Virus record (IMG/VR): IMGVR_UViG_3300045988_170943
Coordinates: 256,001-320,000 of that record
DNA: 64,000 nucleotides
Strand: one strand, 5' to 3'
From: a virus
The notes under the pieces are model-generated. The model did not search any database and was not told the DNA's origin. It saw only the letters and a program-made list of their open reading frames with translations. Below are positions 8,680 through 58,083 of the stretch, piece after piece (positions within the stretch are counted from its first letter, which is position 1; the number at the start of each line of letters is the position of its first letter). The translations under genes and the position numbers were made by a program.

Positions 8680-8730
8680 AATGGTTGGGGCTAAAGCATG
8701 TCGGTAAGATGATGCATAGCCCCAACCATT
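8680..8730 (+). terminator. Perfect 14-bp inverted repeat hairpin (AATGGTTGGGGCTA / TAGCCCCAACCATT, 23-nt loop) downstream of the sigma-factor gene
   Basis: Read directly from the sequence. It has no U-tract, as is common for Actinobacterial intrinsic terminators. Confidence 0.45.
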
Positions 8731-8804
8731 CACGTATTGGCGCCCCCACCACAGAAGAATAAACAGAAGAAGGGCTCCAATACTACATGACACCGAGGTA
8801 GGTA

Positions 8805-10366: not shown

Positions 10367-10393
10367 CCTCATTGAGTATCCAGGAGACGGCAC

Positions 10394-14159: not shown

Positions 14160-15404
14160 ATGAGCCTGTCACCACAGTGGCGCAACGTCATGGAGGCACT
14201 GTCCGACCCAGCCGTCTCCGAGGTGACAGCAAACGGGCCAGACTCATTCTTCGTATCCAGGGGCGGCACCCGCTACCACATGAAAGACGTCACCTTCAAA
14301 GACGTCGATGACTACATGCAGCAGATCGGCGAAAACCTCATCCCACTGGTCCGATCAGCACACGACTGGGACCCAAACGGCATCCTCTACGAAGGCTACC
14401 TGAGCGCCCGCATCCATGGAAAAAAGGTCGCGGGCCGGTGCACCATCGTCCTCCCCCCAGCCTGCCTGACCGCCCAGATCTGCATCACTAACCGTGTCGC
14501 CTCCCTCACCACCCTGGAAGACATCGCCAGCACCGGGTCCATGAGCACCGAGATGCTGGACTTCATCAAGGCGGCCGTAGACAGCGACCTCACCATCGCC
14601 GTCAGCGGATCCACAGGTGCCGGGAAGACCACCCTCATGGAAGCCTGCACGAAACGGTTCTCCAACACGTCAAGAATCGGTGTCGCTGAGGACATGCCCG
14701 AACTACACCTTGTCCAACCGAACGTCTCCTACCTTAACTCCGTACCCTGGAAACCCGGAATGAAGGAAGAAGAATCCGTGTCCCTGACCTGGGTCGTCCA
14801 ACAGTACCAGCGACTCAGGGTCGATAAGGTGATCGTTGGTGAGGTTCGCGGCAAGGAGTTCGCCGACTTCCTCATCGCCGCGAACTCCGGTCTGGGCGGC
14901 TCCATGATCACCCTCCACGCCGAAGATCCCCAGAACTGCCTAAACAAGATGACCGAGTTCGCGCTCGCCGGTGCACCAGGCAGGCCCATCAAGTCCATCA
15001 ACTCATCCATAGCGAACACCATCGACATCATCATCCAAATGGTCAAGACCCAGGACAAACGCAGACGGGTCTCACACATCCAGCAAGTCACCAGAACCGT
15101 GTCCGACGGCCCGGACGCCAAGATCGTCAGCGCACCCCTCTATTTGTGGGACAAGGAAACAGACACGTTCAGTAAGGCCGGGAACATAGAGGACGCCCTC
15201 AGGCAGAAGATGACAGCCCACGGCATCGACGTCCAAAGGTTCCTCACCTCAGAGATCGGCGCCAGATACCCCTCCCACGGCACAGTCGGCGGCATCACCC
15301 CACACAACAACACCATGCCTGCACCCACACCGGCCCCCGCAATGGGGACACCCGACACGAGTAGCACACAGCCCTTTCCAAGAGTCAGGCGCAGAACCAT
15401 ATGA
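14160..15404 (+). CDS. VirB11/TadA/CpaF-family secretion ATPase
   Basis: Walker A AVSGSTGAGKTTLMEA, Asp box, Walker B VIVGEVRGKEF and His box SMITLHAEDP. AAGGGAG RBS upstream. Confidence 0.7.
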   Translation: MSLSPQWRNVMEALSDPAVSEVTANGPDSFFVSRGGTRYHMKDVTFKDVDDYMQQIGENLIPLVRSAHDWDPNGILYEGYLSARIHGKKVAGRCTIVLPPACLTAQICITNRVASLTTLEDIASTGSMSTEMLDFIKAAVDSDLTIAVSGSTGAGKTTLMEACTKRFSNTSRIGVAEDMPELHLVQPNVSYLNSVPWKPGMKEEESVSLTWVVQQYQRLRVDKVIVGEVRGKEFADFLIAANSGLGGSMITLHAEDPQNCLNKMTEFALAGAPGRPIKSINSSIANTIDIIIQMVKTQDKRRRVSHIQQVTRTVSDGPDAKIVSAPLYLWDKETDTFSKAGNIEDALRQKMTAHGIDVQRFLTSEIGARYPSHGTVGGITPHNNTMPAPTPAPAMGTPDTSSTQPFPRVRRRTI

Positions 15405-16498
15405 CAGCACCAGTGGTAGCGTACGCAGATGACTATAGGCTCACCGTCGAGAGCCTGAGATTCTACGTACCCGCATTCCACCAAGGGGAAGAAGCCGAAC
15501 GCATACTCGTCGAATCAGGTGACACACTCCACCCACAGGAACGCAACCGCCTGGAGGTGCAGGCTCGCCTCAAAACCTTAGCCGTAGCGAAGATCGAGTC
15601 CATGTGCAAGCCTCTCATCGTGAGGGAGATCAACAAACTCATCAATGGCTCCCACCTCAGAGGCAACGACGACCTGTTTAACATCCTCTACGAGACCGGC
15701 GTCAAAGTCGGCATGATCAAGGGCCTAAGGCACTTCGACGTCAACAAGATCCAGGCCGGAGCCACAAACTACCTATTCCAGTGGATCGTCACCTATGCCA
15801 GGAAAGAGTTAGCAACCCATGAGGCCACCTTCGGTATCGCCCCATCCAGGTTCCAGAAACTCAAGAAAGTGTCCGCCGTCCGCAAGAAGATAACAGAACA
15901 GTTAGGTAGGTACGCCACCAACCAGGAAGTACTAGACTACTTCCATTCCGGGAAGGCCGACATCAAGACAATGGCCGGGAGACTCAACGCCCCCAACAAA
16001 GGGTACGCCTCCAACAAGGCAATCACCATGGACCTTGTTCAGGAGCAGGAGAAGTTCGAGAAGACCATGGCCTATGTGCAACTCCTCGACCCCCTGGAAG
16101 ACTACCAGCGACAGTTAGACCAGGCCGTCCACCCACCTAAGCCCTTCAACGAGACCATCTTCGGGGCCTTCAACGACACCCACCCCATGACCGACCAGGC
16201 TGTCGCCGTCCTCATGAGTGAACTGGGCAACTACACAGACATGACCCCACAGGTGAGACACGAACTGGACGCCATGACCAAGAAAGAGTACCGGGCCACC
16301 CTCAAACGCATCACAGAGATGGCTACCGACCCACACGGCCCTTTCCAGGCGTTCATCCGCGCTAACGCCGCCACCCTGGACGCCGGATGGGACTACATGG
16401 TGGGCGAGGAAAACAACAGCACTACAGACAAGGTGCGTGCACGATACACGGCAGCACTGTTCCCGCACGGACTGGAAACACGCACAGGAGAACACTAA
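15401..16498 (+). CDS. Divergent sigma-70-like factor
   Basis: FDVNKIQAGATNYLFQWIVTYARKEL matches the sigma region 2 pattern. The ATG overlaps the TGA of the upstream ATPase gene (ATGA). Confidence 0.4.
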   Translation: MTAPVVAYADDYRLTVESLRFYVPAFHQGEEAERILVESGDTLHPQERNRLEVQARLKTLAVAKIESMCKPLIVREINKLINGSHLRGNDDLFNILYETGVKVGMIKGLRHFDVNKIQAGATNYLFQWIVTYARKELATHEATFGIAPSRFQKLKKVSAVRKKITEQLGRYATNQEVLDYFHSGKADIKTMAGRLNAPNKGYASNKAITMDLVQEQEKFEKTMAYVQLLDPLEDYQRQLDQAVHPPKPFNETIFGAFNDTHPMTDQAVAVLMSELGNYTDMTPQVRHELDAMTKKEYRATLKRITEMATDPHGPFQAFIRANAATLDAGWDYMVGEENNSTTDKVRARYTAALFPHGLETRTGEH

Positions 16499-22906: not shown

Positions 22907-25900
22907 ATGATTCTCAGGCATATGCAGCCGCAAGGGGCATCCTACATGACCCCGAACGGTGCGGGTAGGGCACATGACGGTGCCGGGCACAAGCGCACCA
23001 TTGTCGCCACCGTCATGGTAATGCTGTCTGTCCTCATGCTCACCTTCGCTGGCCTGTCCACTGCTGTCAACGTGCGTGAGAAGCAACAGGTGCAGGCTGG
23101 GGACTGGACTCAGTGGCTCATGTGTGAAGTACTACCAGAGTCAGCGAAGGAACTCTACCAGTTCAGCCAGTCGAAGGACCTCCAGTTCCATCTTCGCTCA
23201 AAGTCAGCAATCACTGGTGGAATTGATGACGTGGACGGTGGCCTGAACTGGATGCTGTCTGGCAGTAGCGGCACAGACTTCAAGAAGGTCAATGAGGAGA
23301 TCCTGGGGTTCAGTCTCGACCCAGAAAGTGACGGGCAGTCTCAACCGAACCAGCAGTCAGGTAGCCAGCAAGACCAGAAGCAGGCTGGAGATCAGAAGAG
23401 CGGGGACGGGAAGACTCCCACTGGTGGCAAATACGTCAACCCATACGACCGGTTTGGTGTCGCTGGGATGAAGTTCAGTGCCTACCAGGGTGAGTGGAAG
23501 TACTTCGTTATCGATGCCTGCAAAAAGGACGGGGAGCCGAACGACCCGAAAGCCGGGCTGTTCTATGACAGTCGCCTGGAACCGCGTAGCGGCTGGGAAG
23601 ACATTGGGAACTCCAAGGATGTGCGCACCCAGCAGTTCCAGGCTAACCCATCCGCACCTATTCTCGCCACGGCCCTGAACAGTGTCGCCAACGGGCTATT
23701 CAACATCACGAAACTTATCGTCAGTGTCACTATCGCATTTGTTGGGTTCTCATTCTCTGACATCGTACACACCATGGGGCTCGATAACGTTATCGGCGGC
23801 CAGTCGGGCATGTTCAAGAACCTGTTCAATGGTGTGTTCATGCCACTGGTTGTCTTCGCGTTCCTCACGACCGGGGGCTATCTCATCTACAATGGGGTCT
23901 ACAAGGGGCGTTACCGTGAGTCATTCAACTCGGTAGCAAGATCGTTCCTGATCTTCGCTATCGCCATTGTTGTCGGCATGCACCCGGCACAGGCAATGAC
24001 ACTACCGAACAAAGCCATCGTATGGTTCCAGTCCGTGGTCGTCCTGAGCCTCAACAGTCAGATCGCGGGCGGAGACGACATGTGTGCAACTGACATCGGC
24101 CAAGTCAACTCCAAGATCATCGAGTCTCAGGGGAAGAGTGAGCAAGGGGTCCTGGATGAGGCCGCCCAGAACATCCGGTCAGTGGTCAGTTGCCGAATGT
24201 GGCAGGTCCTCCTCCTCAAACCATGGGCGGAAGGACAATTCGGCACCGACATCAATAACCTGTGGGCCAACGGCAACAAGCCAGGGTGGGCGCCAGAGAA
24301 CGCACAGGAACTCGGCAACAGTAACAACGACATGGTTGGCAGCGCGGAAGTCCCCCTGGGTGAAGGCAAAAGCATCCACAACTGGGGCATATACCAGATC
24401 TCCACGCAGACCAACGCGCACTGGGTCACATCCGGTAACGGCACCAGGGTGAAACCAATCAACGGTGTTGCTGGGGACTGGTACCGGATTGTTGACGCTC
24501 TTGCTAACTATGATGAGGAGGACGCCAAGGAGAAGCCATCCGACAACGCTGAAGAGATTACGTACAAGGTCCCTAAGGAGTCCAATAAGGTCAGTCCTTA
24601 CTGGGATGCGTGGGTGGGGAATAGCGTCGCCAGCAGGTACACGTCCGCCTTGTCCTCCATCCTGGTAGCCGCCCTGGTGTGCGCATCTATGGCCCTGTTT
24701 GCCGGGTGGGCGTCCGTGTACACGATAGGTCTGGCTATACTCCTTGGTTTCGCGCCCCTGTTCATGCTTCTGGCCTGTTGGGCAGGTAGAGGCTGGGAGA
24801 TTTTCAAAGGGTGGGCAGAACTCACAGTTAAGACCGGGCTCAGTCGCATCGTGGTTGGGATACTGCTTGTCTTCAACATTCTCATTGTCAACAACATCCT
24901 AAATATGGCGAACACCCTGTCCTGGGGGAAGATGATCACCCTTCTGATGATCCTTACCGTCATCATGTTCAAGGGGCGTGAGAAGATCACTGAGATGTTC
25001 GCTGCCGTCCAGTTCGGTGGCGTGAACATGGCCTCCACGGCCAGCAGAGTCACCGACCGAACCAAGAACATTGTTATGGCGCCAGTTAAGACATCTGGTC
25101 GTTTCGCAACCAGCGCCGTGGGTGGCGGTGTTGGGGCGAGGCGCGAGGGCGGGTCGTTCATGCGTGGCATGGGTGCTGGCGCGGTCCAGGAGTTTAAAAA
25201 CATGACCTACCGGTCCGGGATGCTCAGGGACGCGAGAACAACCTATGACACGCACGCCGCTGCCGCCGGGAAGAAAGGCGTCCTCGTGTCTGAGATGAAC
25301 TGTGCCGTATGTGGTAAGCCACTCGACTATGAGCAGAATCAGTACGGCACCCAACAGTTCATTGGCGGCCGCGACCGGAACGGTAACCTCGTGTGCCGCG
25401 AGTGCCTTGAAGACGGCATGGGTGACGATGTTCAGGAGGTCACATTCAACCGTCCGACCGCTGCACAGAGGCGCGACGCCAGCAAGAGCAAGGACGCACA
25501 ACGCAAGAAGATCCGAGAGAGTTACAACAAGCGGTTCACTGACGACACAGCCGGTCGAACTGTAGCCGAGAATACGGCCAGCGGAATCCATGACATGCGC
25601 AACGAGGACTTGAACACCATTGCGGGCAGGGAGAATCGTGCAGAGAACGAGGCTAAGTTGCGTGCCGCCATGAGTATGGTCCACCAAGACGTTTATGCTC
25701 ACAAGTCCGCCAAAGATTACAGTCGAGACAAAAAGAAAGACCCCAGGACGATAACCACCACAAAACTCCCCAAGGAGATCGACGGGATCGTAGACAAGGA
25801 CGCCCTCCAGGAAGCGTGGATGAAACAGGACTACAACTATGTGATCATGACCTATGTGTCAGCCTGGATTGTCTGGTATCAGCAGAACACAGGCGTCAAG

Positions 25901-26068
25901 TACAGTGCCGACATCAACTCCACCTACTATGCTGTCAAGAACAAGAACCTGGAGGCATTCGACAAGGCCGAGTACCATCGCATCATGGATGAGGGTAAAA
26001 CAAGACGAGCCGACGCTAAGGCAAAGAACCAGGCCCCAAGTGGCGGCGGCAGTGAGGATAAGGAATGA
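22907..26068 (+). CDS. Giant polytopic membrane protein (1053 aa), paralog of the preceding gene, with C-terminal zinc-ribbon-containing charged tail
   Basis: It shares the PWAEGQFGTDINNLWANG ... NWGIYQI ... DWYRIVDA motifs with the 1379-aa protein and has multiple TM helices. The tail contains CAVCGKPL ... LVCRECLED (CxxC ... CxxC). Confidence 0.6.
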   Translation: MILRHMQPQGASYMTPNGAGRAHDGAGHKRTIVATVMVMLSVLMLTFAGLSTAVNVREKQQVQAGDWTQWLMCEVLPESAKELYQFSQSKDLQFHLRSKSAITGGIDDVDGGLNWMLSGSSGTDFKKVNEEILGFSLDPESDGQSQPNQQSGSQQDQKQAGDQKSGDGKTPTGGKYVNPYDRFGVAGMKFSAYQGEWKYFVIDACKKDGEPNDPKAGLFYDSRLEPRSGWEDIGNSKDVRTQQFQANPSAPILATALNSVANGLFNITKLIVSVTIAFVGFSFSDIVHTMGLDNVIGGQSGMFKNLFNGVFMPLVVFAFLTTGGYLIYNGVYKGRYRESFNSVARSFLIFAIAIVVGMHPAQAMTLPNKAIVWFQSVVVLSLNSQIAGGDDMCATDIGQVNSKIIESQGKSEQGVLDEAAQNIRSVVSCRMWQVLLLKPWAEGQFGTDINNLWANGNKPGWAPENAQELGNSNNDMVGSAEVPLGEGKSIHNWGIYQISTQTNAHWVTSGNGTRVKPINGVAGDWYRIVDALANYDEEDAKEKPSDNAEEITYKVPKESNKVSPYWDAWVGNSVASRYTSALSSILVAALVCASMALFAGWASVYTIGLAILLGFAPLFMLLACWAGRGWEIFKGWAELTVKTGLSRIVVGILLVFNILIVNNILNMANTLSWGKMITLLMILTVIMFKGREKITEMFAAVQFGGVNMASTASRVTDRTKNIVMAPVKTSGRFATSAVGGGVGARREGGSFMRGMGAGAVQEFKNMTYRSGMLRDARTTYDTHAAAAGKKGVLVSEMNCAVCGKPLDYEQNQYGTQQFIGGRDRNGNLVCRECLEDGMGDDVQEVTFNRPTAAQRRDASKSKDAQRKKIRESYNKRFTDDTAGRTVAENTASGIHDMRNEDLNTIAGRENRAENEAKLRAAMSMVHQDVYAHKSAKDYSRDKKKDPRTITTTKLPKEIDGIVDKDALQEAWMKQDYNYVIMTYVSAWIVWYQQNTGVKYSADINSTYYAVKNKNLEAFDKAEYHRIMDEGKTRRADAKAKNQAPSGGGSEDKE

Positions 26069-36186: not shown

Positions 36187-37260
36187 ATGTACACAACAGT
36201 AGGCGCCCTAGCGGCAGGCTACATCATCGGCATGCCCACTCTCATGGCCTTGTTCCTATTCGCCCACAACCGGCTCGTCACCGAGAAGAAGATAGAGCGA
36301 GCCACCCTCAAGAAAAAGAAGGGCACCCTTAAAGACTCCAGCAAAGACCCATCCAACATCGTCCCCCTGTCCGTCACTATCTGGGAACGACTCAACTTCC
36401 TCCTCAAAGAGGACACGCGACTACTAAGGTCAGGAAGCAAGAAGGACGACAACCAGGACGGCAAGGACGAGAAGGTGCCAGAGAGCGGCATCACCAACAA
36501 GCAAGCGTTTTTCGGGATCCTCACTGCTGGACTCATCATGTTCGTCTCACCTGCATTCGGTGCCACATGGTGGATGCTCGCCGCCGGAGGATTCACATTC
36601 TACAGTGCTATCGGGTTCGCCTCATCCACCGCAAAACCCATCATGGAGGCCCGCAAGAAAGCCATCACCAAGATGGTCAACATCGCCAAGTCCAAACTCG
36701 GCAACACGGAAACCAACCCCAGTGAGATCGTCACCGTCCTAGAATGGGATCAACTTGTCAAACCACTAAGGCTTACGTTCACGATCCCGCACACGTTCAA
36801 CGGGGAAATGGGAGAAGACGCATTCCTCCGACAGTTCAACCAGGGGTTCGGGCAGGTGCGCACATTCGTCCCAGACAACCGCGACCCACAGAAACCAGGC
36901 TGGGACTACGACCAGGACATTCTCACCCTGTACGCCGTACCCCCACTACCAGTCATCGCACCATTCAGCGAGCACTACGTCATCGGGGAAGCAATCGCCA
37001 AGTCATTCATCCCCATCGGACTGGGTATCGACGGTGGCCTGGAACTACCAAACCCTGAGACCGGGGAGATTGAGCACGTCATCGGGTTCGACCTAGCCGG
37101 TGAGCAGAAAGCCCTCGCAGACAAGTACGGAATCAAGGTCGCAGAAAACATCTCTGGCGCATCCCCACAGGGCCTCGTCGCCGGACCCACAGGTGGAGGC
37201 AAGTCACTGTCCATCGACACTCCCGTCCTTGTTCGTGTCCCTAAGAAACCGGTTGCGTGA
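36187..37260 (+). CDS. Polytopic membrane protein
   Basis: 357 aa with at least 3 TM helices (e.g. FFGILTAGLIMFVSPAFGATWWMLAAGGFTFYSAIGF). Confidence 0.45.
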   Translation: MYTTVGALAAGYIIGMPTLMALFLFAHNRLVTEKKIERATLKKKKGTLKDSSKDPSNIVPLSVTIWERLNFLLKEDTRLLRSGSKKDDNQDGKDEKVPESGITNKQAFFGILTAGLIMFVSPAFGATWWMLAAGGFTFYSAIGFASSTAKPIMEARKKAITKMVNIAKSKLGNTETNPSEIVTVLEWDQLVKPLRLTFTIPHTFNGEMGEDAFLRQFNQGFGQVRTFVPDNRDPQKPGWDYDQDILTLYAVPPLPVIAPFSEHYVIGEAIAKSFIPIGLGIDGGLELPNPETGEIEHVIGFDLAGEQKALADKYGIKVAENISGASPQGLVAGPTGGGKSLSIDTPVLVRVPKKPVA

Positions 37261-37296
37261 CACGTTTTCAGGCGATATAATGCCAGTAGGCCGCAA

Positions 37297-37572
37297 TTGG
37301 TGACAAACAGCACGAAGGAAACAGACATGCCCACATACGAGGAACGCCTAGCATCCATGAAGGCACAGCGTCAGGAAAACGGTGGAGTAAAAGGCCTCTA
37401 CCACGCCAACATCAACGTACTCGACCGAAACACTCTTGAGGACGCTATGAAGCATCCAGAGAACTACCCGAACCTCACTGTCCGCGTCAGTGGCTATGCC
37501 GTCAACTTCGTCAAACTAACCCATGAGCAACAGTTAGACGTCCTCCGCCGCACCTTCCACTCCCAGGCCTGA
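37297..37572 (+). CDS. grcA: Autonomous glycyl-radical cofactor (GrcA/YfiD-like; stand-alone pyruvate-formate-lyase C-terminal glycyl-radical domain)
   Basis: [48 protein letters not shown] aligns almost residue-for-residue with the GrcA/PflB C-terminus, including the RVSGYAV glycyl-radical motif. At 91 aa it is a stand-alone domain. Confidence 0.75.
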
Positions 37573-37685
37573 ACCTAACCACACCTCAAGACCGGAACGC
37601 TCCTGCATCTTGGTGGACACCCGAACAAGCCCCATGAGTGCCCAAAGGCGGCAGTATCCTACCGTATCCTCTGAATGACAAACGT

Positions 37686-37725
37686 GAAGCATGCCAGCAC
37701 TGAAATCAATCAGGCGGCATGCTTC
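37686..37725 (+). terminator. Perfect 10-bp hairpin (GAAGCATGCC / GGCATGCTTC) between the grcA-like gene and the activase gene
   Basis: Read directly. It overlaps the track's ATG at 37719, which argues against that start. Confidence 0.3.
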
Positions 37726-37832
37726 GTCATCTCACCAGGGGTACCCTGCTCAGGTTCCTCTACCACCACAAGGACGCTCCGCACCCTAGACGCAACCGCC
37801 CTATTCGCGCACAGGAAGTGAACCCACCTAAC

Positions 37833-38351
37833 ATGACCAGGTACATCGGGTACAGTAGATTCGACATCGCCAACGGCCCTGGCATTCGCGTATCCATCTT
37901 CCTGTCCGGGTGCTCATTCAAATGCAAAGGGTGCTGGTCCGCCACCGCCCAGAACCCACGCATGGGAGACCTCTTCACGACAGACATCATCAGAATGGTG
38001 CTCGACGACTGTGCGCAAACAGGCATCGCCGGGCTCTCCATCCTTGGTGGTGAACCCTTCGAGAACACTGACGCCACCAGGGAACTCGTGCGAGCATTCC
38101 GGGCCAAGTTCGGGAACACTAAAACTATCTGGGTCTGGTCAGGGTTCTACCTGCACGAGATACTAGCAGACTCCAGAAAGGTAGCCATCCTCAAAGACGT
38201 GGACGTACTCGTTGACGGCAGATTTATCCTGGAACAGCGAGACACCAGCCTCAGGTTCCGTGGGTCACGCAACCAGTCAGTGCTTGACGCCCCACGATCC
38301 ATCCGGGCCAGTGAAGCCGTCTGGTGGGAAGGAATCAAACCCGGCCAGTGA
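37833..38351 (+). CDS. nrdG: NrdG-like glycyl-radical enzyme activating protein (radical SAM)
   Basis: From the internal Met, YIGYSRFDIANGPGIRVSIFLSGCSFKCKGCWS matches the NrdG N-terminus (DIVNGPGTR ... SGC...C.GC.N) with a CxxxCxxC cluster. GGAAG RBS upstream. The track start at 37719 would add an atypical 38-aa leader. Confidence 0.65.
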   Translation: MTRYIGYSRFDIANGPGIRVSIFLSGCSFKCKGCWSATAQNPRMGDLFTTDIIRMVLDDCAQTGIAGLSILGGEPFENTDATRELVRAFRAKFGNTKTIWVWSGFYLHEILADSRKVAILKDVDVLVDGRFILEQRDTSLRFRGSRNQSVLDAPRSIRASEAVWWEGIKPGQ

Positions 38352-38597
38352 AGCACGCTAGAACTGCAAAACTCGGGTTAGAAACCATCACAGGCAACCC
38401 CAAAGACTACCCGCGTAATCAGGGAGAGAACGGATCATGGCAAAGAAGTATGTTCACCTCAGCCCGAAGACGAATCAAATGGAGGAATGTGTAGGCCCAG
38501 ACAGGTGCAAATACAGGAACCAGAACGTCCCGCACGCTGAGGCTGGAGACACCGCCCGCATCGCCGACATCATGGCAAAGGCACACTCCAACGGGAC

Positions 38598-39752
38598 ATG
38601 TTCGGCACCTCAAGCACAAACAACAAGGACAAAGACTCTGAAGCACTAGCAAGGGTTAAGAAGATCAGGAAAGACCGCGGAGTCAGCACCCCCACAGAAG
38701 GGCACCTGGCAGAAGGACTGGACCGCAACGGAGACTTCAAAGTCAGTTTCCCGCCAACCAGTATCGGCTCCCAGTTCTCCATCGACACCTTTGAAGGGGA
38801 AACCCAGTACACCGTCACAGGACCCAAGGGGTACGACCAGATAGTCGCTGAAGACAGCACCGGCGAGAAACGCATCTTCAACCGTTCAGACTACGGCCCA
38901 TACGTCATAACCAGTGTCCTGAACACGGTGGCTGCACACAATGAAGCCATCCAGGGTGCGCGAGGGTACAGGCTACGTCAGGCCAAGAGCCTCAGAGACA
39001 GTCAGCGCACGTACATGAAAAAGGCGATCAGGGACGCAAGTTTCGATGAAGGTGGCGCAGCACATGGTGGCCTCAACGCCAACAGCATCAAATACGACCC
39101 GAACACTGACACCATAACAATGCATGTCTCCAGGGACGACCACCCCAGGAGGGCGGCAGCCGTCGTGACAGTAGACCGCGCTGGTGACGCCGTGATCAAG
39201 AACGCTATCGACGGCACGCTAGAAAGCGTCCTCAAGAAGAAGGGCGTCAGACAGGAAATGCGTCGCATGTACGAGAGAGAAAGGGATGTGGCTGTCGCCC
39301 AGAACCGGTACGACCGGCTCCCCTATGTGCGCATGACAAACTACCCCGCCCACATCGACGAGTTCATTGACAGCGATGTCGAGTCATTCAGACGTGAGAA
39401 GGAAAACCGCCTCAACATCGCTAAAGCCCGAGTCCGGGACGTCCTCACCGACGAAGACAGTATGAGCACATTCAAGATAGGTAAGGACAACAAGGGTATC
39501 TTTGTCGTAAAGACAGACAAGGTGACAGGAGACACGGCCAGCGGATATATCCAGGTCGGAGAAGACGGAAGATTCAACGGCCTGGAAGAGTACAACAAGG
39601 ATCACAAGGCCACCAAAAAACTACTCACCTCAAGCCTGAGCAGGGTAGCCCCAGCGGACCTGAAAGAACTCGCTGACTCCTACAACGCACCAGACGTCAC
39701 CAAGGAAGACCTCGAAAGGTACTACCCACCAAAGAGGACCAGCAAGAAGTGA
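38598..39752 (+). CDS. Hypothetical protein (384 aa)
   Basis: Long ORF with no recognisable motif. Its 5' end overlaps an alternative small ORF at 38437-38649. Confidence 0.35.
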   Translation: MFGTSSTNNKDKDSEALARVKKIRKDRGVSTPTEGHLAEGLDRNGDFKVSFPPTSIGSQFSIDTFEGETQYTVTGPKGYDQIVAEDSTGEKRIFNRSDYGPYVITSVLNTVAAHNEAIQGARGYRLRQAKSLRDSQRTYMKKAIRDASFDEGGAAHGGLNANSIKYDPNTDTITMHVSRDDHPRRAAAVVTVDRAGDAVIKNAIDGTLESVLKKKGVRQEMRRMYERERDVAVAQNRYDRLPYVRMTNYPAHIDEFIDSDVESFRREKENRLNIAKARVRDVLTDEDSMSTFKIGKDNKGIFVVKTDKVTGDTASGYIQVGEDGRFNGLEEYNKDHKATKKLLTSSLSRVAPADLKELADSYNAPDVTKEDLERYYPPKRTSKK

Positions 39753-41765: not shown

Positions 41766-42509
41766 TTGAGTCAACCAGTCACCCCCACCGATCAGACCGC
41801 AGAAGACCCAGGTGACCTCACCCAGCACATGGGCGCCCACTCGGGTAAGGTCCTCCAAGAGGACGACAACTACACCTATGAGTTGAGGTGTTTCGGCGAC
41901 CTTCAGGAAGGGGATGAGGTTGTAACCACTGGTGGAGAGTGGCAGCAGGTCGCCAGAGCCTACCCTGAGCACATACCAGTGTCCATGTATGAGGTCGAGG
42001 TGGGTGGTACCGTCATGCAGGTGTCTGGGAACCACCTGTTCTATGTGGAGTCCGACCTGGACCGTCAGTTGCACGCCAGCAGACTCAAGACGTCCGCGAA
42101 GACGATCCAGAAGCACTTGTCTCAGAAGGTGTTGGACGACCTGTGGGAGATCGTCAACGATGACAGCGGCTACGAGATCGAGATGCTTCTATCTGATATG
42201 GTGAACCTCCTGGAAGTGTCAGGGAACCTTGAAGTTGAGAACATCATCACCAGGGTCGCTGAGAGCATCGGCCCTATCAGTGAGGTCAACGTGGTCCCAG
42301 AGGACGTTGAGACCGGCCGTCGCGGCAGCGGAAGAAAGGTCGCCGGGTACGATGGGAGACGGTTCGCGCAGCAATTTCTGTCCCTGACCGGGATCCGCAA
42401 GTACCGAAAAAGGTGGCCTGTCATTGTCGGCAGGGTCGTCACCACTGAGGAGATGCTGAACCTTATGGAGTCGTTCAACGTACACCTACCAAACCCACCC
42501 AAACACTAG
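41766..42509 (+). CDS. Hint (intein/hedgehog-like) domain-containing protein, free-standing
   Basis: CFGDLQEGDEVVTTGGEWQQVARAY matches intein block A (Cys then xxGDxVxT). QVSGNHLFYV matches block B (TxNHxF). No terminal HN-Cys/Ser/Thr junction is visible. Confidence 0.4.
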   Translation: MSQPVTPTDQTAEDPGDLTQHMGAHSGKVLQEDDNYTYELRCFGDLQEGDEVVTTGGEWQQVARAYPEHIPVSMYEVEVGGTVMQVSGNHLFYVESDLDRQLHASRLKTSAKTIQKHLSQKVLDDLWEIVNDDSGYEIEMLLSDMVNLLEVSGNLEVENIITRVAESIGPISEVNVVPEDVETGRRGSGRKVAGYDGRRFAQQFLSLTGIRKYRKRWPVIVGRVVTTEEMLNLMESFNVHLPNPPKH

Positions 42510-42617: not shown

Positions 42618-43361
42618 ATGGGGAATAACCTGACGCGAGCCAATATTCCTACTATACAAGAGACTTTCATGAATCCCAACAAACCTAGGAGAACACCTAT
42701 GAGTGCACTCACCAGCACGGCAGGGGCCATAGATTCATCCTTCACCCCGGTCTACAAGCGAGTCATAGGTTGGGTAGCCGCACAGATGGCTGTCGCCTCT
42801 CTAACTGCTCTCATCCTTGGGCCTATGATCCCTCCAACAATGATCATGGGGATCAACCTGGCTGTTGTTGCTGGCTTGATCGTCATGTCGTTTGTGCGCG
42901 TATCACCGCGTGTCGCGCCACTGATCGCCTTGATCGTACCGGCAGCGATAGGTCTGATCGTTTACGTGAGCGTCAGTCACTATTTAAACGCCGGTATGGG
43001 CGACATCGTGATCATGGCGGCCGCCTCAACCATGGTGATCTTCACTACCCTAGCGGTCATGGCTTGGCGGAGTGAACGCAGCATCGAACGCTGGTCAGGG
43101 AAGATGTTCGCCATCCTTCTGGGGCTGATCGCGCTGGGCGTCCTGAACATCTTCCTCAAGATGACGATGCTGTCGCTTATCATCTCGGGTGCGGGTGCTG
43201 TCCTGTTCTCCCTATATATCTTCATGGACATTCAGCGTATCAGAGACCTCCGACAGGATGACAACGCGACTGCGAGCATGTATGCACTCAATGTCTTCCT
43301 TGACATCGTGAACTTGTTCCTGAACCTCCTGAACATTCTGGGAATCCTCAGCCGACGATAA
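42618..43361 (+). CDS. Bax-inhibitor-1/YccA (TMBIM) family membrane protein
   Basis: Seven predicted TM helices and the characteristic C-terminal signature ALNVFLDIVNLFLNLLNILGI (cf. YLDIINLFLxLLRIL). The true start may be an internal Met (42669 or 42699). Confidence 0.55.
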   Translation: MGNNLTRANIPTIQETFMNPNKPRRTPMSALTSTAGAIDSSFTPVYKRVIGWVAAQMAVASLTALILGPMIPPTMIMGINLAVVAGLIVMSFVRVSPRVAPLIALIVPAAIGLIVYVSVSHYLNAGMGDIVIMAAASTMVIFTTLAVMAWRSERSIERWSGKMFAILLGLIALGVLNIFLKMTMLSLIISGAGAVLFSLYIFMDIQRIRDLRQDDNATASMYALNVFLDIVNLFLNLLNILGILSRR

Positions 43362-43716: not shown

Positions 43717-44268
43717 ATGAACGGCATAACGGAACTAGAGAAGATGGTTTCTCGCACACAGGCCATCGTGGTTAACTCCGCGATGGAGGTAATGAGCGTG
43801 GTCCCATGGGATCGCGCCATGACACTGGTCGTGTCGAACGCGGCATACACGCTGATCCCGCGTTCAGATGGCACCCTCGTGCGCAGCCAGTTTCTCGCGC
43901 TACCTAAGCCTCTGGTTGTGTCCCTGAACAAGTATGTCCCAAAGCACCGCACCCCGCAACGCACCAACGACAGTGTTGTGACGAACGAGATGGTTCATGA
44001 GCGGGACCAGTACACGTGCCAGTACTGCGGCGTGCACGTCACTCGTAGTGAGGCCACAGTGGACCACATTCTCCCTAGGTCCAGGGGTGGACGATCCACG
44101 TGGGGGAACCTGTGCACGGCCTGCAAGCGGTGCAACAACCGGAAGGCTGACCGCACCCCACAGGAGGCCGGAATGGCTATGCCGGTCATCCCGGACTGGG
44201 GTGCAGTCAACAAGGGTAAGGCCCTCCAGGATGCCCTCTACGAGATCATCTCAGATTCCTGGAAATAG
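43717..44268 (+). CDS. HNH endonuclease
   Basis: CQYCGVHVTRSEATVDHILPRSRGGRSTWGNLCTACKRCNNRKADR gives the CxxC ... H ... N ... CxxC HNH core. Confidence 0.65.
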   Translation: MNGITELEKMVSRTQAIVVNSAMEVMSVVPWDRAMTLVVSNAAYTLIPRSDGTLVRSQFLALPKPLVVSLNKYVPKHRTPQRTNDSVVTNEMVHERDQYTCQYCGVHVTRSEATVDHILPRSRGGRSTWGNLCTACKRCNNRKADRTPQEAGMAMPVIPDWGAVNKGKALQDALYEIISDSWK

Positions 44269-49848: not shown

Positions 49849-51006
49849 ATGCCAAGACAAGCCATCGCCGACAAGACCCTAAATAAGGTCGCAGAACTAG
49901 AGAAGTTCATGAAGTCCCTAAACAAGAACAGTAAGTTCAGGGGGTACAGCGACTCTGATCTTGTCACCAAGTTGGGTGCCAACCCTCCAAAGGTTGAGAC
50001 CATCTCCACTGGCAGCCTCACCCTAGATCAGGCTCTCGGTGGCGGCTTCGGTAAGGGTAGGCTGATCGAAATCTACGGCCCAGAAAGTTCCGGTAAGACA
50101 TCCGTAGCCCTCACCGCTATCGGCAACGTCCAACGGGAGGGCGGCACAGCACTATTCGTGGACGTCGAGTATGCTCTCGATCCCGTATACGCACGCAAAC
50201 TCGGTGTAGACACAAGCACCCTGTTCCTCGCCCAACCAGACACAGCCGAGATGGCGCTGGACCTCATCGAAGAGGTCGCCGGTTCAGGGAGCGCAGACAT
50301 CATCGTCCTAGACTCTATTGCCGCACTCACCCCAAAGGCCGAATTGGAAGGCAGCGCTGAAGACGTGACAGTCGGCCTTATTGCCCGCCTCCTGTCCAAG
50401 CAACTACGCAAACTTGTCGCTATCGCATCAAGGAATAAGAGCACCATCATCTTCATCAACCAGACGCGAGACAAGATCGGCGGATTCTCACCATACGGCA
50501 CCCCACAGACAACCCCCGGCGGCAAGGCTCCCAAGTACTACGCCACCCAGAGGATCAAAGTAGCCCGGGTTGGGAAACCAGACCTCTTCAAGGAAGGCCC
50601 CAACAAGGGGCTGCCCCGAAGCGTCAGAGTCAAGTACACTGTCGAGAAGAACAAGATCGCCCCACCGTTCCGCACCGCAGAAAGCGTCCTGGAATGGAGC
50701 CGCGGCATCAACCAGGCCGCAGAACTGTTCAACGTCGGCAAGGACTACGGCATCCTCGAAGGTGGCAGTGGCGGGCGATACAACCTTCCTGACACAGACT
50801 TCAAACTCCCAGTCGGTGCAGACAAGATTATCCACGAGATCGAAACCAACAAAGAACTCTTCGCCACACTGGAAGAAAGAGTCAGAGACGCCATCGAGAA
50901 GTCATTCAACGAGGAGGTCACCCCGATCCAGGAAGACGATCCCAGTGTTGAGGATGAGCCGCTAGAAGACCTCGAACCGGAAGAGACAGCAAACGCAGAA
51001 TGGTGA
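49849..51006 (+). CDS. recA: RecA-family recombinase (divergent)
   Basis: LDQALGGGFGKGRLIEIYGPESSGKTSVAL ... VDVEYALDPVYARKLGVDTSTLFLAQPDTAEMAL ... IIVLDSIAALTPKAELEG ... FINQTRDKIG matches the RecA core throughout. It has an acidic C-terminal tail. Confidence 0.8.
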   Translation: MPRQAIADKTLNKVAELEKFMKSLNKNSKFRGYSDSDLVTKLGANPPKVETISTGSLTLDQALGGGFGKGRLIEIYGPESSGKTSVALTAIGNVQREGGTALFVDVEYALDPVYARKLGVDTSTLFLAQPDTAEMALDLIEEVAGSGSADIIVLDSIAALTPKAELEGSAEDVTVGLIARLLSKQLRKLVAIASRNKSTIIFINQTRDKIGGFSPYGTPQTTPGGKAPKYYATQRIKVARVGKPDLFKEGPNKGLPRSVRVKYTVEKNKIAPPFRTAESVLEWSRGINQAAELFNVGKDYGILEGGSGGRYNLPDTDFKLPVGADKIIHEIETNKELFATLEERVRDAIEKSFNEEVTPIQEDDPSVEDEPLEDLEPEETANAEW

Positions 51007-52502: not shown

Positions 52503-52762
52503 AATCTCCGCCCGTTTAAAGGCGTGCGCACAAACTGTGTACACCATGCTGGGCCGTAACCAGGGTAGGCTCTTTCCTTTCTTCCTCCCTGTGGTTACGG
52601 CCCAGCCCCTTCCTATTCCGCTACGAGAGCCTGGGGCGGGTGCTGCGACCTCCTGGACTGTAGGTGCGATGTGGGCCGGGTAGAATGGTGCTGCCCACCG
52701 CAAGTCAGCATTACCATCCGCCGCATAGGGGTGGGGTGCGAGAAGGAACAGAGGACATCCAC

Positions 52763-54226
52763 ATGTCAGACAGGAACGGCCTGTATCTGAGGGCACAGCG
52801 CAGCCTCGTGTCTGCCCTCCTGTTTGACGGCAGTGACGTAAACCGGGCACTGGAGTTCGTGTCCCCGGACGACTTCAATGATTCTGCCCTGAGCGAGATA
52901 ATGGAGTCTATAGCGAATGTTGCTCGCCGTGATGACATGGTGTCTGAGATAACAGTCAGCGAGGACCTTGAAGCCAGAGGAAAACTGGATAGCGTTGGTG
53001 GCGTGAAGACCATCTACGCGCTGCGTGTTCAAGGTGAACGGGCTCTTATGGAGGGTGTGATCACCACCTATGCGGCTGTCGTCCGGGAGTTCTCCAGCAA
53101 GAACTCGATCATGCGGCTTCTGCGTGACGCTGAAGCCATGTTTCAGGAGGACTCAGGTGTCACCGCCCGCGACGCTATCGCGACCCTCCAGGGACAGTTG
53201 AGCAATGAGGTACTGAAACTCACGGATGACGCAACCACCACGGAAGTGTCCGAGTACATCACCTCATACGAAGACATTCTCGCTGAGCGACTACAGATCA
53301 CGGAGGAGAACTCCCAGTACGCTGATGGCCTCCAGGGTATCCCGTCAATGGTGCCATCCCTAGACAAGTACACTGGCGGCTTCAAGGGCGGGGAGATGAT
53401 CGTAGTTGGGGCCAGGACTGGTATTGGTAAGTCCGTGTTCGCGGTCATGCAGGCTGTAGCGACCGCTCAGACCGGGAAGACCTGCCTATTTTTCTCTATG
53501 GAGATGAACCATGCGGAAATCATTGACCGCATGGTAGCGAACGTTTCCGGCGTTGATCAAAGTCGCCTGAAACAGGGGCGCGTCAACCCTGAGGAGATGA
53601 AGTCCGTGAGGGAGGCGATGAAGAAACTTGAAGACATGAACATCATCATCGACACGGACTCAGCCACCACCCTGGACAGTATCAGGTCGAAGGCGCAGAG
53701 GCAGGCTCAGACCAGTATCGGACTGGACATGATCATCATTGACTACCTGCAACTCATGTCCATGCCCGGCAAGTACAGCAACAGGCAGGAAGAAGTTGCG
53801 GCCCTGTCACACCAGATCAAGCAACTCGCCGCCTCCCTGAACGTACCCATCATGGTCCTGGTTCAGATGAACCCGAAGGATGAGCGAGGCAAAGACGGCG
53901 AAGAGATAATGCCGCACCATGATGATGTGCGCGAGTCCAGAGCCATCAGCCATGACAGCAACATGTTCATCATTCTTCACCGCAACACGAAGACCGACAA
54001 CACTGCGGACCGGACTCTCATCATCCTGAGCAAGAACCGTGGTGGCGCAGCCGGAAAGATTGTCGCCTGCCACTCCGACCTTAGTGTTGCCATGTTCCGA
54101 GAAATCAAGAAGGAAGAGGACGTCACCAAGGACAACCTGGACGCTATGGATAGTGACTTCGAGGAGTTCCTAGGTGACGGCGAGACCCTGGACGGCGACA
54201 TCGATCCAGGCGACATCGACTGGTAG
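52763..54226 (+). CDS. dnaB: DnaB-family replicative DNA helicase
   Basis: The N-terminal domain (LRAQRSLVSALLFDGSDV ... FNDSALSEIMESI) and RecA-like core (GGFKGGEMIVVGARTGIGKSVFAVMQA ... LFFSMEM ... IIIDYLQLM) match DnaB. ATG at 52763 with a GAAGGAACAGAGGA RBS. Confidence 0.75.
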   Translation: MSDRNGLYLRAQRSLVSALLFDGSDVNRALEFVSPDDFNDSALSEIMESIANVARRDDMVSEITVSEDLEARGKLDSVGGVKTIYALRVQGERALMEGVITTYAAVVREFSSKNSIMRLLRDAEAMFQEDSGVTARDAIATLQGQLSNEVLKLTDDATTTEVSEYITSYEDILAERLQITEENSQYADGLQGIPSMVPSLDKYTGGFKGGEMIVVGARTGIGKSVFAVMQAVATAQTGKTCLFFSMEMNHAEIIDRMVANVSGVDQSRLKQGRVNPEEMKSVREAMKKLEDMNIIIDTDSATTLDSIRSKAQRQAQTSIGLDMIIIDYLQLMSMPGKYSNRQEEVAALSHQIKQLAASLNVPIMVLVQMNPKDERGKDGEEIMPHHDDVRESRAISHDSNMFIILHRNTKTDNTADRTLIILSKNRGGAAGKIVACHSDLSVAMFREIKKEEDVTKDNLDAMDSDFEEFLGDGETLDGDIDPGDIDW

Positions 54227-55678: not shown

Positions 55679-55728
55679 CGACGGCAGATTGTACCTTAAT
55701 TCCACCACACCGATTGCAGGTGCCTCTT

Positions 55729-58083
55729 ATGTTCGAGACCTACCACAGGATGAAGAACACAGTCGATGTGTCGTTCGACGACTTCTTCACTGACTCCCCG
55801 GTCCACGTCACCAAAGGTGAACCTAAACCCAGGCGAACCCTGTCAATGGTCGCAAAGAACCTGGGTGTCTTCATGCTCGTCGCGGCCCTGTGCGGGACCC
55901 TCACCTCAGTGTGGCCGATCCTCGCGCTCAGCCAGGGGGTACAAGCCGCAGAACCAATCGCTGAGTACTGGAAGTCCCTGCCAGAGAACCTGGAAGACAT
56001 CGAGATCGGGCAGAAGAACACGCTACTCGACATCAACGGCACCCCATACGCTGAAGTATGGTCAGAGAACAGAACCACCCTCACCTCACTGGACCAGGTG
56101 AGCGACTACGCAAAAAAGGGCTTGATCGCAACCGAAGACAAGGACTTCTACAAGCACAAGGGCTTCAGCCTGAAAGGTACAGCGCGAGCAGCAATGTCCA
56201 GTTCCGGTGGAGGATCCGGCATCACCCAACAGTTAGTGAAAAACCTCCAGTTCTTCAACCTAGCCGGTCGAGACAAGAAAGACCAGGCCGTCGAAGCCAC
56301 CATCGGCCGCAAGGTACGCGAACTCAAACTGGCACTAGGCTACGAGAAGAAGCACACCAAGAACGAAATCCTGCTCACCTATTTCAACACCGTAGCGTTC
56401 GGCGGCCCCAACACGTACAGCATCGAGACCGCCGCCCAATACTACTTCGGGAAGCCAGCCAAGGACCTCGACCTGGCAGAGTCAGCAGTCCTCGTCGGAA
56501 GCGTCCAGAACCCCAGTCGCTTCAACCTAGACAACACCGAGGACAGCAAGACCAACTACAAGGCCCGCCAAAAAGATGTGCTCGACAGGATGGTCACAGA
56601 GGGTTACATCACCCAAGCCGACGCAGATAAGGCATATGGTGAGGAACTGAACCTCGTCTACAAGTCAACCTCCAACGGCAACTGCACCTCCAGCAGATAC
56701 CCCTACTACTGCGAGTATGTCATGGGCTACCTGTCCAAGTCACCGAAACTAGGGGAGACACAGGAAGAGCGAGACGCCATCCTCCGCAAGGGCGGCCTCC
56801 AGATACACACCTACCTAGACCCCAACGCTATGGGGATCGTGGACGCGCAACTCAAACAGGACTACGGAACAGACAACCACCTGGCCGCCCCTACCGCTGT
56901 CGTCCAACCAGGCACAGGAGGCGTACTCGCAATGGGATCCAACCGCGACTACGGGACCGGCCCAGGACAGACCACCGTCAACCTGCCCTTACATGCCACT
57001 GGCACCGGGTCCGTCTACAAAATGATCACACTCGCTGCCGCACTCCACGAAGGCTATACCGAGTCCGACCTAGCGTTCTCATCCCGATGCCCCCTCGTCG
57101 ATTCACGCTACGACACCCCAGACGGCGGAATCACCAACTCCGACTCCTGCTCCCTCCAGGGAGGTTACATGGACTACCGGACCGCCACAGCCCTATCCTC
57201 CAACACATGGTTCAGCGAGTTGGAGATCAAGGTCGGTGTCGAGAAGGTCAAGGAGTTCAGCGCCAGTGTCGGACTGTCCGCACCCGACAACATCACCTCC
57301 CGGTCCCTGGCCTACACGCTGGGTGTCACAGAGAACTCAGAGGTAGCGATGGCGGCAGCATTCGCAACATTCTCCAACGGCGGCATCTACTGCCCTCCCA
57401 GCCCCGTCTCTACGTTCTCTTACGCAGACGGCACCTCACCCGTTGTCCCAGACACCTATGACCCCAAGACAGACTCCTGCCGCCGTGTCCTGTCAGAGAA
57501 GGACAGCGGCGTGGTCCTCAAGGCTATGCGAGCCAACGTCAGCGGCGAGATCCCCAACGCTTTCGGGAACAAGTTCAACACATCAGGGTACACGACCGTA
57601 GCCAAGTCTGGCACCAACCAACTTTACAACTCCACGTGGGCTGTCTTGTCCGGCAACTTCAGTGTCTTCAGCAACATCTATGACCCTGTAGACTTCACTG
57701 AGGGCATGGACCCAACAACATACCGTGGCAGCCAGTACCGGTGGTGGGACCACGTGATCGGATACACGGGCCGCGACATCATGACCTCACTGCTGAACAC
57801 GGAAGGATACAAGCCCCTAAAGTTTGACAGCAGTGACGACACCATGACCGAGGTGTCCGTTGAGTCCAGGGACTTCGTAACCATCCCCTCCGTGATTGGT
57901 ATGGAACCGGCGCAAGCGATGGCGACGCTCAACTCGCTAGGGTTCCCTGCCCACCTGAGTAAGGAGAAGAAGCCAGCACCAGACGGTTACCAGTCTGGGG
58001 TGATTGTTGAGCAGAACCTCACCCCTGGCACCCAGTTGCCGGTCGGAAGTAAGAAGGAGATCATCATCTACCAGTCCAAGTAG
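55729..58083 (+). CDS. Class A penicillin-binding protein (GT51 transglycosylase + transpeptidase) with C-terminal PASTA domain, PonA2-like
   Basis: N-terminal TM helix. GT51 motifs ATEDKDFYKHKGFS and GGSGITQQLVKN. Transpeptidase motifs SVYK (SxxK), SSN (SxN) and KSG (KTG-like). A C-terminal ~70-aa PASTA fold (VTIPSVIGMEPAQAMATLNSLGF ... PGTQLPVGSKKEIIIYQSK). Confidence 0.7.
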   Translation: MFETYHRMKNTVDVSFDDFFTDSPVHVTKGEPKPRRTLSMVAKNLGVFMLVAALCGTLTSVWPILALSQGVQAAEPIAEYWKSLPENLEDIEIGQKNTLLDINGTPYAEVWSENRTTLTSLDQVSDYAKKGLIATEDKDFYKHKGFSLKGTARAAMSSSGGGSGITQQLVKNLQFFNLAGRDKKDQAVEATIGRKVRELKLALGYEKKHTKNEILLTYFNTVAFGGPNTYSIETAAQYYFGKPAKDLDLAESAVLVGSVQNPSRFNLDNTEDSKTNYKARQKDVLDRMVTEGYITQADADKAYGEELNLVYKSTSNGNCTSSRYPYYCEYVMGYLSKSPKLGETQEERDAILRKGGLQIHTYLDPNAMGIVDAQLKQDYGTDNHLAAPTAVVQPGTGGVLAMGSNRDYGTGPGQTTVNLPLHATGTGSVYKMITLAAALHEGYTESDLAFSSRCPLVDSRYDTPDGGITNSDSCSLQGGYMDYRTATALSSNTWFSELEIKVGVEKVKEFSASVGLSAPDNITSRSLAYTLGVTENSEVAMAAAFATFSNGGIYCPPSPVSTFSYADGTSPVVPDTYDPKTDSCRRVLSEKDSGVVLKAMRANVSGEIPNAFGNKFNTSGYTTVAKSGTNQLYNSTWAVLSGNFSVFSNIYDPVDFTEGMDPTTYRGSQYRWWDHVIGYTGRDIMTSLLNTEGYKPLKFDSSDDTMTEVSVESRDFVTIPSVIGMEPAQAMATLNSLGFPAHLSKEKKPAPDGYQSGVIVEQNLTPGTQLPVGSKKEIIIYQSK

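Follow-up and report, generated by a model that had tools for sequence, protein, structure and literature searches.

A grcA2 gene and an NrdG-type activase gene as neighbours on a very large mobile element

Genes and features of the locus

The stretch of DNA analyzed here, 64,000 nucleotides (nt) long and hereafter called the window, comprises positions 256,001 to 320,000 of the IMG/VR virus record IMGVR_UViG_3300045988_170943. It belongs to a very large mobile element and carries two neighbouring genes, grcA2 for a small stand-alone glycyl-radical domain protein, and nrdG for a radical S-adenosylmethionine (SAM) activase. A preliminary description of the locus had read the pair as a single module, in which a radical cofactor of the GrcA/PflB type travels with its own NrdG-type activase and serves as a spare part for the pyruvate formate-lyase (PFL), or another glycyl-radical enzyme, of the host. 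Both protein identities were borne out by curated models and domain profiles (NF008341 and Gly_radical for the small protein, TIGR02491 and Fer4_12 for the activase). The origins of the two genes and the genes around their relatives point to a different relationship between them: they were acquired separately and are probably not a matched pair. The features of the locus are as follows.

37253..37281, plus strand: promoter-like site TTGCGT-N17-TATAAT, of putative function, upstream of grcA2 and overlapping the stop codon of the upstream open reading frame (ORF)
37314-37321, plus strand: ribosome-binding site (RBS) GAAGGAAA of grcA2, 5 nt upstream of ATG 37327 and largely conserved in sister contigs
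37327..37572, plus strand: grcA2, stand-alone glycyl-radical domain protein of 81 amino acids (aa), from NF008341, Gly_radical and alignments
37573..37832, plus strand: non-coding spacer of 260 nt, with a variable centre containing indels and with identity below that of the flanking coding sequences
37675..37730, plus strand: strong hairpin between grcA2 and nrdG, from folding and conservation, of putative function
37813..37818, plus strand: RBS AGGAAG of nrdG, 14 nt upstream of ATG 37833 and invariant in sister contigs
37833..38351, plus strand: nrdG, NrdG-type radical-SAM glycyl-radical activase of 172 aa, from TIGR02491, Fer4_12 and motifs

The place and strand of both genes agree with the preliminary description, and the start codons do not. 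The ORF listed for grcA2 begins at TTG 37297 (37297-37572, 91 aa), and ATG 37327 is preferred because the RBS precedes it and homologues are 81-84 aa long. The ORF listed for nrdG begins at ATG 37719 (210 aa), and ATG 37833 (172 aa) is likelier because homologues of 163-176 aa align from the methionine at this position.

The small ORF scored 162.1 bits against NCBIfam NF008341 ("autonomous glycyl radical cofactor GrcA2"), over positions 2-79 of 80 and above the curated equivalog cut-off of 145 bits, while the GrcA model TIGR04365 gave 86.5 bits, below its cut-off of 170, and the GrcA3 model also scored under its cut-off. Pfam Gly_radical matched with E = 9.9e-18, over profile positions 65-106 only. 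Ahead of the radical domain there are about 19 residues, compared with an N-terminal region of about 60 residues, required for their activation, in proteins of the GrcA/YfiD type. The best match in the PDB was E. coli GrcA (6OWR, E = 2.7e-20), with residues 20-78 of GrcA2 aligned to GrcA residues 66-124, followed by PflB residues 696-756, and no NrdD chain occurred among the 32 PDB matches. Identity to residues 700-756 of E. coli PflB was 60%. The loop R53-V-S-G56-Y-A-V is intact, with the codon for the radical glycine, Gly56, at 37492-37494. Purifying selection acts on grcA2 within the element clade (dN/dS, the ratio of non-synonymous to synonymous substitution rates, 0.04-0.05). For example, the window and the element copy L007 differ by 17 synonymous and 3 non-synonymous changes (dN/dS 0.04). 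The element gene and the host-type copy in L015 differ by 36 synonymous and 15 non-synonymous changes (dN/dS 0.056).

The activase scored 147.6 bits against TIGR02491 (NrdG), above the equivalog cut-off of 126.1, and only 35.6 bits against the PflA model TIGR02493, which has a cut-off of 231.75. It also matched Pfam Fer4_12 (8.7e-43), and at 172 aa it is much shorter than the host PflA proteins of 291-310 aa. Like the NrdG proteins of nrdDG operons in Firmicutes, E. coli and phage T4, it is a small single-domain radical-SAM protein with the motifs CX3CX2C (C27, C31 and C34, at 37911-37934), NGPG.R and GGEPF. The N-terminal NGPG.R motif is conserved, and the cluster motif and the SAM-binding GGEPF (G72-F76) are invariant in an alignment with 10 homologues. 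It differs from those proteins in lacking an adjacent nrdD and in belonging to an element-specific lineage with at most 49% identity to any other sequence. No solved structure with detectable sequence similarity to the element NrdG was found. The gene is under purifying selection (dN/dS 0.165), and both ORFs are intact in all copies of the element. Between the window and L007, dS was 0.41 in grcA2 (37327-37569), about three times the value of 0.125 in nrdG (37833-38348); gene conversion by chromosomal copies of grcA2 may account for the difference, as may the noise expected of a short gene.

In the promoter-like site, the -10 hexamer and most of the remaining positions are invariant across six aligned copies of the element. 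A consensus scanner passed over the site at 37253..37281 because the -35 hexamer matches at only 3 of 6 positions. The hairpin in the spacer folds with -26.8 kcal/mol (z = -5.25; none of 200 shuffled sequences folded equally well), its stem bases are invariant in the six copies, and no run of T follows it, so that it is a candidate terminator lacking a U-tract or a candidate element of RNA processing or stability. The grcA2-nrdG spacer gave no Rfam match, to a riboswitch or other known RNA, at E values up to 1, and it has no counterpart in the sister elements L010 and L011.

Search for a catalytic glycyl-radical enzyme

That the window lacks nrdD and pfl, as the preliminary description asserted, was confirmed by Pfam scans, tblastn and a scan for the loop motif. 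No window ORF of at least 500 aa matched NRDD or PFL-like families. In tblastn searches of the window and 13 related element loci, ten NrdD proteins taken from beside NrdG relatives in other genomes and viral contigs gave a best E value of about 1 and no nrdD. The six-frame scan of the window yielded four matches to the glycyl-radical loop pattern, of which only that of GrcA2 lies in a plausible gene. Sister contigs in IMG/VR, up to five in number, carried the search about 10 kb beyond the upstream end of the window and about 35 kb beyond its downstream end, covering about 109 kb of element sequence (related contigs are 201-394 kb long), and contained neither an nrdD gene nor a remnant of one; a pfl core gene or remnant was likewise absent from the window and the roughly 45 kb of sister-contig flanks. 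The preliminary description had itself raised the prospects of an nrdD gene immediately outside the window and of a frameshifted nrdD remnant that would make the small ORF a pseudogene fragment. The flanks hold no such gene, there is no remnant, and the dN/dS of grcA2 is that of a constrained gene. An ordinary nrdDG cluster with a misannotated domain was also considered and set aside, as there is no adjacent nrdD and the small ORF matches PFL-type domains only.

Relatives of the element NrdG elsewhere are typically accompanied by their enzyme. In 77 of 80 cellular loci nrdD lies upstream of nrdG, adjacent and on the same strand, and it also directly adjoins nrdG in five viral contigs. The NrdD proteins adjoining the cellular NrdG relatives carry RRTCGY loops (RRTCGYIG). 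Among GTDB species representatives there was no close relative of the element NrdG, the best reaching 45%. In L095, from an Acutalibacteraceae metagenome-assembled genome, an 88-aa GrcA-like ORF (about 15500-15760) lies about 5.5 kb downstream of an nrdDG operon, and is another instance of a PFL-type radical domain near genes for class III ribonucleotide reductase (RNR).

Order of acquisition and origins of the two genes

In all 11 loci of the close clade (L001, L002, L006-L009 and L098-L102), grcA2 is followed by nrdG. Homologues of the element NrdG fall into tiers, with 95% identity among copies from the same element, 62-68% in a diverged sister group and at most 49% in all else; named matches outside the element lineage are from Firmicutes, at 40-48%. 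Two members of the sister group, L010 and L011, show synteny with the window and have in common with it the 698-aa and 562-aa ORFs, the gene for a single-stranded DNA-binding protein (SSB), the 348-aa ORF, nrdG and, further on, the Bax1-I and HNH genes. Their NrdG proteins are 62-66% identical to that of the window, and their nrdG genes begin 53 nt and 1 nt after the counterpart of ORF 36187-37260. Neither grcA2 nor any glycyl-radical motif was found in L010 (20 kb) or L011 (12 kb). Because these elements carry nrdG without grcA2 at the same site, the segment 37261-37832 represents an insertion into an older locus with an orphan nrdG; nrdG is the older resident and grcA2 the later arrival. With its promoter-like site, RBS, coding sequence and hairpin, the inserted piece resembles a cassette complete in itself. 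The 260-nt spacer arrived together with grcA2 or after it.

The inserted gene resembles chromosomal genes of Actinomycetaceae. GrcA2 is 88-93% identical to chromosomal proteins of this family (90-93% in the pflB-grcA2-pflA loci L014 and L015, and 88% for an Actinomyces entry in the nr database), and 79-84% identical to proteins of Trueperella, Schaalia, Actinotignum and others. At the DNA level the chromosomal loci match with 75-83% identity, and only within the coding sequence (37326-37575). Remnants of pflB or pflA that might have marked the capture were not seen in the flanks, where homology ends with the coding sequence. These similarities point to derivation of grcA2 from an Actinomycetaceae chromosome. 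Since grcA2 is host-like at 88-93% and NrdG reaches no more than 49% outside the element lineage, the two genes have different origins. The proposal of one module made up of a cofactor and its own activase is not sustained, given the presence of nrdG without grcA2 in sister elements, the different origins, and the type of loop in GrcA2, which is that recognized by the PFL activating enzyme (PFL-AE).

Two other genes were observed near nrdG in L010, the sister element without grcA2. Upstream lies an ORF resembling TnpB/Cas12f (L010:6157-7701, PF07282), and 1.7 kb downstream is a gene for a flavoprotein resembling thioredoxin reductase (L010:12233-13003), of possible relevance to class III RNRs that depend on thioredoxin.

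A two-piece pyruvate formate-lyase in the likely hosts

The chromosomal relatives of the element gene have a constant setting, and the gene order pflB-grcA2-pflA occurred in every chromosomal locus inspected (L004, L005, L015, L120 and L121). These represent two complete genomes of Trueperella pyogenes, an Actinomyces-like metagenome contig and two contigs with an A. graevenitzii protein. Three of the split loci, all chromosomal Actinomycetaceae, are the following.

L015:7779-10246, split pflB-grcA2-pflA locus
L004:5884-8249, split pflB-grcA2-pflA locus
L120:3777-6249, split pflB-grcA2-pflA locus

The chromosomal proteins measure 696-708 aa (PflB), 81-84 aa (GrcA2) and 291-310 aa (PflA). Aligned to the 760-aa PflB of E. 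coli, the host PflB covers residues 10-697 and then stops, and GrcA2 covers residues 700-756 or 700-760; the Pfam Gly_radical profile is divided between the two proteins. Each of the two genes, pflB and grcA2, forms a cistron of its own with a separate RBS, and L015 has a hairpin in the interval. Because pflB ends near residue 697 and GrcA2 supplies residues 700-760 with the radical glycine, PFL in these bacteria appears to consist natively of two polypeptides, and GrcA2 is probably its radical-bearing subunit, not a spare or repair part. The spare-part picture of the preliminary description is thus probably wrong, since the PflB core of the likely hosts lacks a radical domain of its own. The literature searched contained no description of a natively split PFL in Actinomycetaceae, no paper using the name GrcA2, and nothing relevant on the PFL glycyl radical in Actinomyces.

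The element protein is the same as the chromosomal GrcA2 (NF008341) in its family length of 81-84 aa, in its N-terminal motif and in the sequence RVSGYAVNF, which are identical, and in an overall identity of 79-93%. It differs in context. The usual surroundings, a truncated pflB before it and pflA after it, do not occur in the window, where neither gene is present, and the element gene lies instead beside an NrdG-type gene on a mobile element. An engineered counterpart of the natural split is the tPFL(1-695):truncYfiD docking model (Andorfer et al. 2021, PMC8683613), which corresponds to the Actinomycetaceae split nearly residue for residue (about 697 and 700-760). The two differ in that truncation impaired rescue by YfiD in E. 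coli, whereas the split in Actinomycetaceae, as predicted from its genes, is native and conserved.

Proposed function and alternative explanations

The reading that we favor, and hold to be probable, is that grcA2 and nrdG are two separately acquired accessory genes that became neighbours by chance on a very large mobile element. The identities of the genes, the order in which they arrived, the host-like provenance of grcA2, the division of the host PFL and the purifying selection on both genes are shown, while the assignment of activases to substrates is an inference. Host PflA would radicalize the element GrcA2, because the loop RVSGYAV is the canonical substrate of PFL-AE, and because pflA, the gene for the presumed activase, adjoins the chromosomal grcA2 genes with 88-93% identity. 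The E. coli PFL-AE accepts the heptapeptide RVSGYAV and rejects the RNR loop RVCGYLG, and the specificity of activases is reported to follow the sequence of the loop, with cross-reactivity among them described as rare (PMC13450708). The radical-bearing element GrcA2 would then dock on the host PflB core. Extra GrcA2, produced from its own promoter-like site, would enlarge the pool of the PFL part that oxygen destroys, such that PFL activity might rise, or recover quickly once the small radical subunit has been lost to oxygen. To this extent the earlier idea that the small protein supports host PFL in an oxygen-exposed anaerobe finds support, with the mechanism a prediction from sequence. NrdG, for its part, would most likely activate a class III RNR, the NrdD of the host; for Actinomyces, RNRs of classes Ib and III are on record (PMC4009431). 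Formate is the reductant of formate-dependent class III RNR (PMC13450708), and formate made by PFL could feed such an enzyme, a functional convergence of the two genes without direct interaction that would help to supply deoxyribonucleoside triphosphates (dNTPs) anaerobically when the element replicates. Since a class Ib RNR gene, nrdE, is already among the genes of the element, NrdG could plausibly take part in providing dNTPs.

Several points weigh against this reading. The adjacency, shared strand and spacing of grcA2 and nrdG are kept throughout the close clade, no separate nrdG promoter stands out convincingly, and with a hairpin that lacks a U-tract the two genes may be co-transcribed. 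GrcA2 is the sole candidate glycyl-radical substrate in about 109 kb, within which NrdG has no visible partner, and the element would have little evident need of its own NrdG if the host has one. No report of an NrdG acting on a PFL-type loop was found in the literature searched. The host, probably an oral Actinomyces-type bacterium, is assigned from the similarity of grcA2 and from G+C content only. Finally, about 109 kb of an element of some 200-394 kb was inspected, which leaves a modest chance that the element has an nrdD of its own.

Some of these points would fit a matched, self-sufficient pair, in which NrdG installs the radical on GrcA2, GrcA2 plugs into the host PFL, and host PflA is not needed. 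Side by side on one strand, the genes are conserved together in 11 loci, the GrcA2 loop is the only plausible one in the window and its flanks, the lack of a clear nrdG promoter and of a U-tract would allow a common transcript, and both genes are under purifying selection. However, nrdG predates grcA2 at the site and persists alone in the sister elements, a strong and conserved hairpin separates the genes, the GrcA2 loop is a PFL-AE substrate while relatives of the NrdG are paired with RRTCGY loops, and the chromosomal GrcA2 genes with 88-93% identity adjoin pflA, the gene for their presumed natural activase. We consider such a pair rather improbable, and it is just as doubtful that the orphan NrdG was later recruited to radicalize the captured GrcA2, forming a portable, self-activating radical cartridge for the truncated PflB core of Actinomycetaceae. 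A somewhat better chance, although still a low one, attaches to a dispersed class III RNR, with NrdG serving a distant nrdD of the element and grcA2 unrelated to it. The element invests in nucleotide supply (its class Ib NrdE contains an intein), phage nrdD and nrdG can be apart or occur singly (PMC3653736), and the inspected sequence is less than half of the element. Against this, no nrdD was found in the roughly 109 kb of window and flanks, in up to five contigs, or in the sister elements, and a distant nrdD would be atypical in view of the 77 of 80 cellular loci and five viral contigs in which it adjoins nrdG.

Two further readings concern the integrity of the genes. As a decoy or modulator, the element GrcA2 could vie with host GrcA2 for binding to the PflB core or PflA, diverting the fermentation of the host instead of boosting it. 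In favor of this, the subunit has to bind both partners, the element supplies an additional copy of it, and that copy is apparently expressed from its own promoter-like site. Yet the loop is complete, with its radical glycine, and the substitutions relative to host copies are mostly synonymous (dN/dS 0.056 against L015), and preserved normal function therefore fits better than a dominant-negative variant, making a decoy very unlikely. It is more unlikely still that the locus holds decaying leftovers, a pseudogene fragment of a glycyl-radical enzyme with a stranded activase. There is no catalytic partner nearby, and the next gene downstream has a 1-nt frameshift in the window, but every copy keeps both ORFs unbroken and purifying selection acts on them, the small ORF is as long as its family members and exceeds the curated cut-off, the search for remnants of nrdD or pfl found none, and nrdG has been retained across sister elements with 62-68% identity.

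The element and its probable host

The mobile-element setting given in the preliminary description was upheld by genes for a T2SSE ATPase, a TrbL/VirB6-like protein, SSB, RecA and DnaB, and by TcpC and NikA-like genes upstream of the window. The window has a G+C content of 54-59%, and nearly all of its long ORFs are on the plus strand. The conjugation-type genes are those for the VirB11-like T2SSE ATPase (14160-15404) and the TrbL/VirB6-like protein (22907-26068), and the window also encodes a protein with a tail-lysozyme domain, an SMC/SbcC-like ATPase and the SSB. Further along are RecA (49849-51006), DnaB (52664-54226), a class A penicillin-binding protein with a PASTA domain (55714-58083) and Bax1-I (42618-43361). 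Sister contigs show TcpC, NikA-like, GmrSD-like and PhoH/PIN genes just upstream of the window, and a ClpB-like ATPase, a RecG-like helicase and the class Ib NrdE downstream of it. NrdE (L118:17633-20614, 994 aa), a class Ib RNR large subunit with an intein containing LAGLIDADG, lies about 4.6 kb past the end of the window, and no obvious nrdF directly follows it. About 22-35 kb past the end are at least 37 tRNA genes for most amino acids (L204:16208-21225; L205, reverse complement, 458-10381), an array that is unusual for an element of the conjugative type and more typical of huge phages.

These contigs represent a large unclassified element lineage, with related contigs of up to 394 kb. Among these are IMGVR_UViG_3300008363_000089 (394 kb), IMGVR_UViG_3300007825_000031 (248 kb), IMGVR_UViG_3300045988_187272 (201 kb) and, from ENA, HMPC12-1_SAMN00062993 scaffold_16 (213 kb). 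Loci nearly identical to that of the window occur in human-microbiome metagenome contigs (Human Microbiome Project, HMP, sample codes in the record names) and in five IMG/VR entries of 97-394 kb (L098-L102). A search of ten large window ORFs against PHROGs gave no meaningful match, and the window had no DNA match in the phage collection. A known plasmid was considered as the source, and matches in the plasmid collection were limited to the 3' ends of pflB genes and one grcA3. Assignment of a host through RecA was uninformative, as the element protein is deep-branching and, like the element NrdG, has no close cellular relatives, with at most 59% identity outside its own clade and about 47-49% to cellular RecA.

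A few observations were made on genes flanking the locus. Near position 38595 the window has a 1-nt deletion relative to sister contigs (aacgg-gacatg compared with aacggcgacatg). The deletion, a genuine frameshift or else an error of sequencing, splits the 438-aa ORF after nrdG into parts of 70 aa (38437-38649) and 384 aa (38598-39752). The ORF upstream of grcA2 (36187-37260; L011:8953-9999 in the sister element) ends about 18 residues past a Walker-A-like GPTGGGK. Its tail (about 37200-37257) reads SLSIDTPVLVRV in the window and AMASDTLVIVRV in the 52%-identical sister element and resembles intein block A, with Ala after GK in the sister. The gene may be split, or the tail may belong to an atypical split intein; neither Pfam nor PHROGs, even at relaxed thresholds, supported reading the C-terminus as an intein or as FtsK, and the window contained neither a C-terminal intein junction nor a partner. 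The 247-aa ORF at 41766-42509 also has Hint-like features (CFGDLQEGDEVV ... VSGNHLFYV), and a Hint reading of it was likewise without Pfam or PHROGs support, relaxed thresholds included. Near it is an HNH endonuclease gene (43717-44268), the counterparts of which in sister contigs carry PF01844.

Known systems and significance

The novelty claimed for the locus in the preliminary description is weakened by precedents. Stand-alone GrcA genes were found in 1,580 of 50,697 phage records, mainly of T4-like and T5-like phages, and an auxiliary GrcA on a mobile element is therefore of a kind already known; in the two T4-like/T5-like regions inspected, the GrcA gene does not adjoin nrdG. Two features are unusual: the gene is of the GrcA2 type, which fits a host PFL in two pieces, and an orphan NrdG is conserved beside it. 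E. coli GrcA/YfiD and T4 Y06I are, like the element protein, stand-alone PFL-type glycyl-radical domains, and their carriage by phages is known. Both have been validated by experiment, and PFL-AE is the activase of YfiD as well as of Y06I (PMC8683613); a review of glycyl-radical enzymes from 2026 names no spare parts other than these two (PMC13450708). The element GrcA2 differs from GrcA/YfiD in falling under the TIGR04365 cut-off and in the partner of its family, since GrcA/YfiD serve a full-length PflB that has been cleaved by oxygen, whereas the chromosomal relatives of GrcA2 would partner a naturally truncated PflB.

Current understanding is not overturned by these results unless NrdG acts on GrcA2. 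If it did so, no earlier NrdG-type enzyme would be known to act on a glycine loop of the PFL type, and the element would be the first mobile one to deliver a glycyl-radical subunit together with its activase. An NrdG kept without NrdD raises the question of how specific such activases are, and of how an element might tap the anaerobic dNTP synthesis of its host. The presence of GrcA2 on a giant unclassified element of a probable high-G+C Gram-positive host extends the carriage of a consumable radical part beyond the phages of enterobacteria. The natively split PFL of Actinomycetaceae, which lies outside the window and appears to be unstudied, is the more interesting by-product of the analysis, and this two-piece enzyme would provide a clean system for the exchange of a radical domain, its activation, and its replacement after damage by oxygen.

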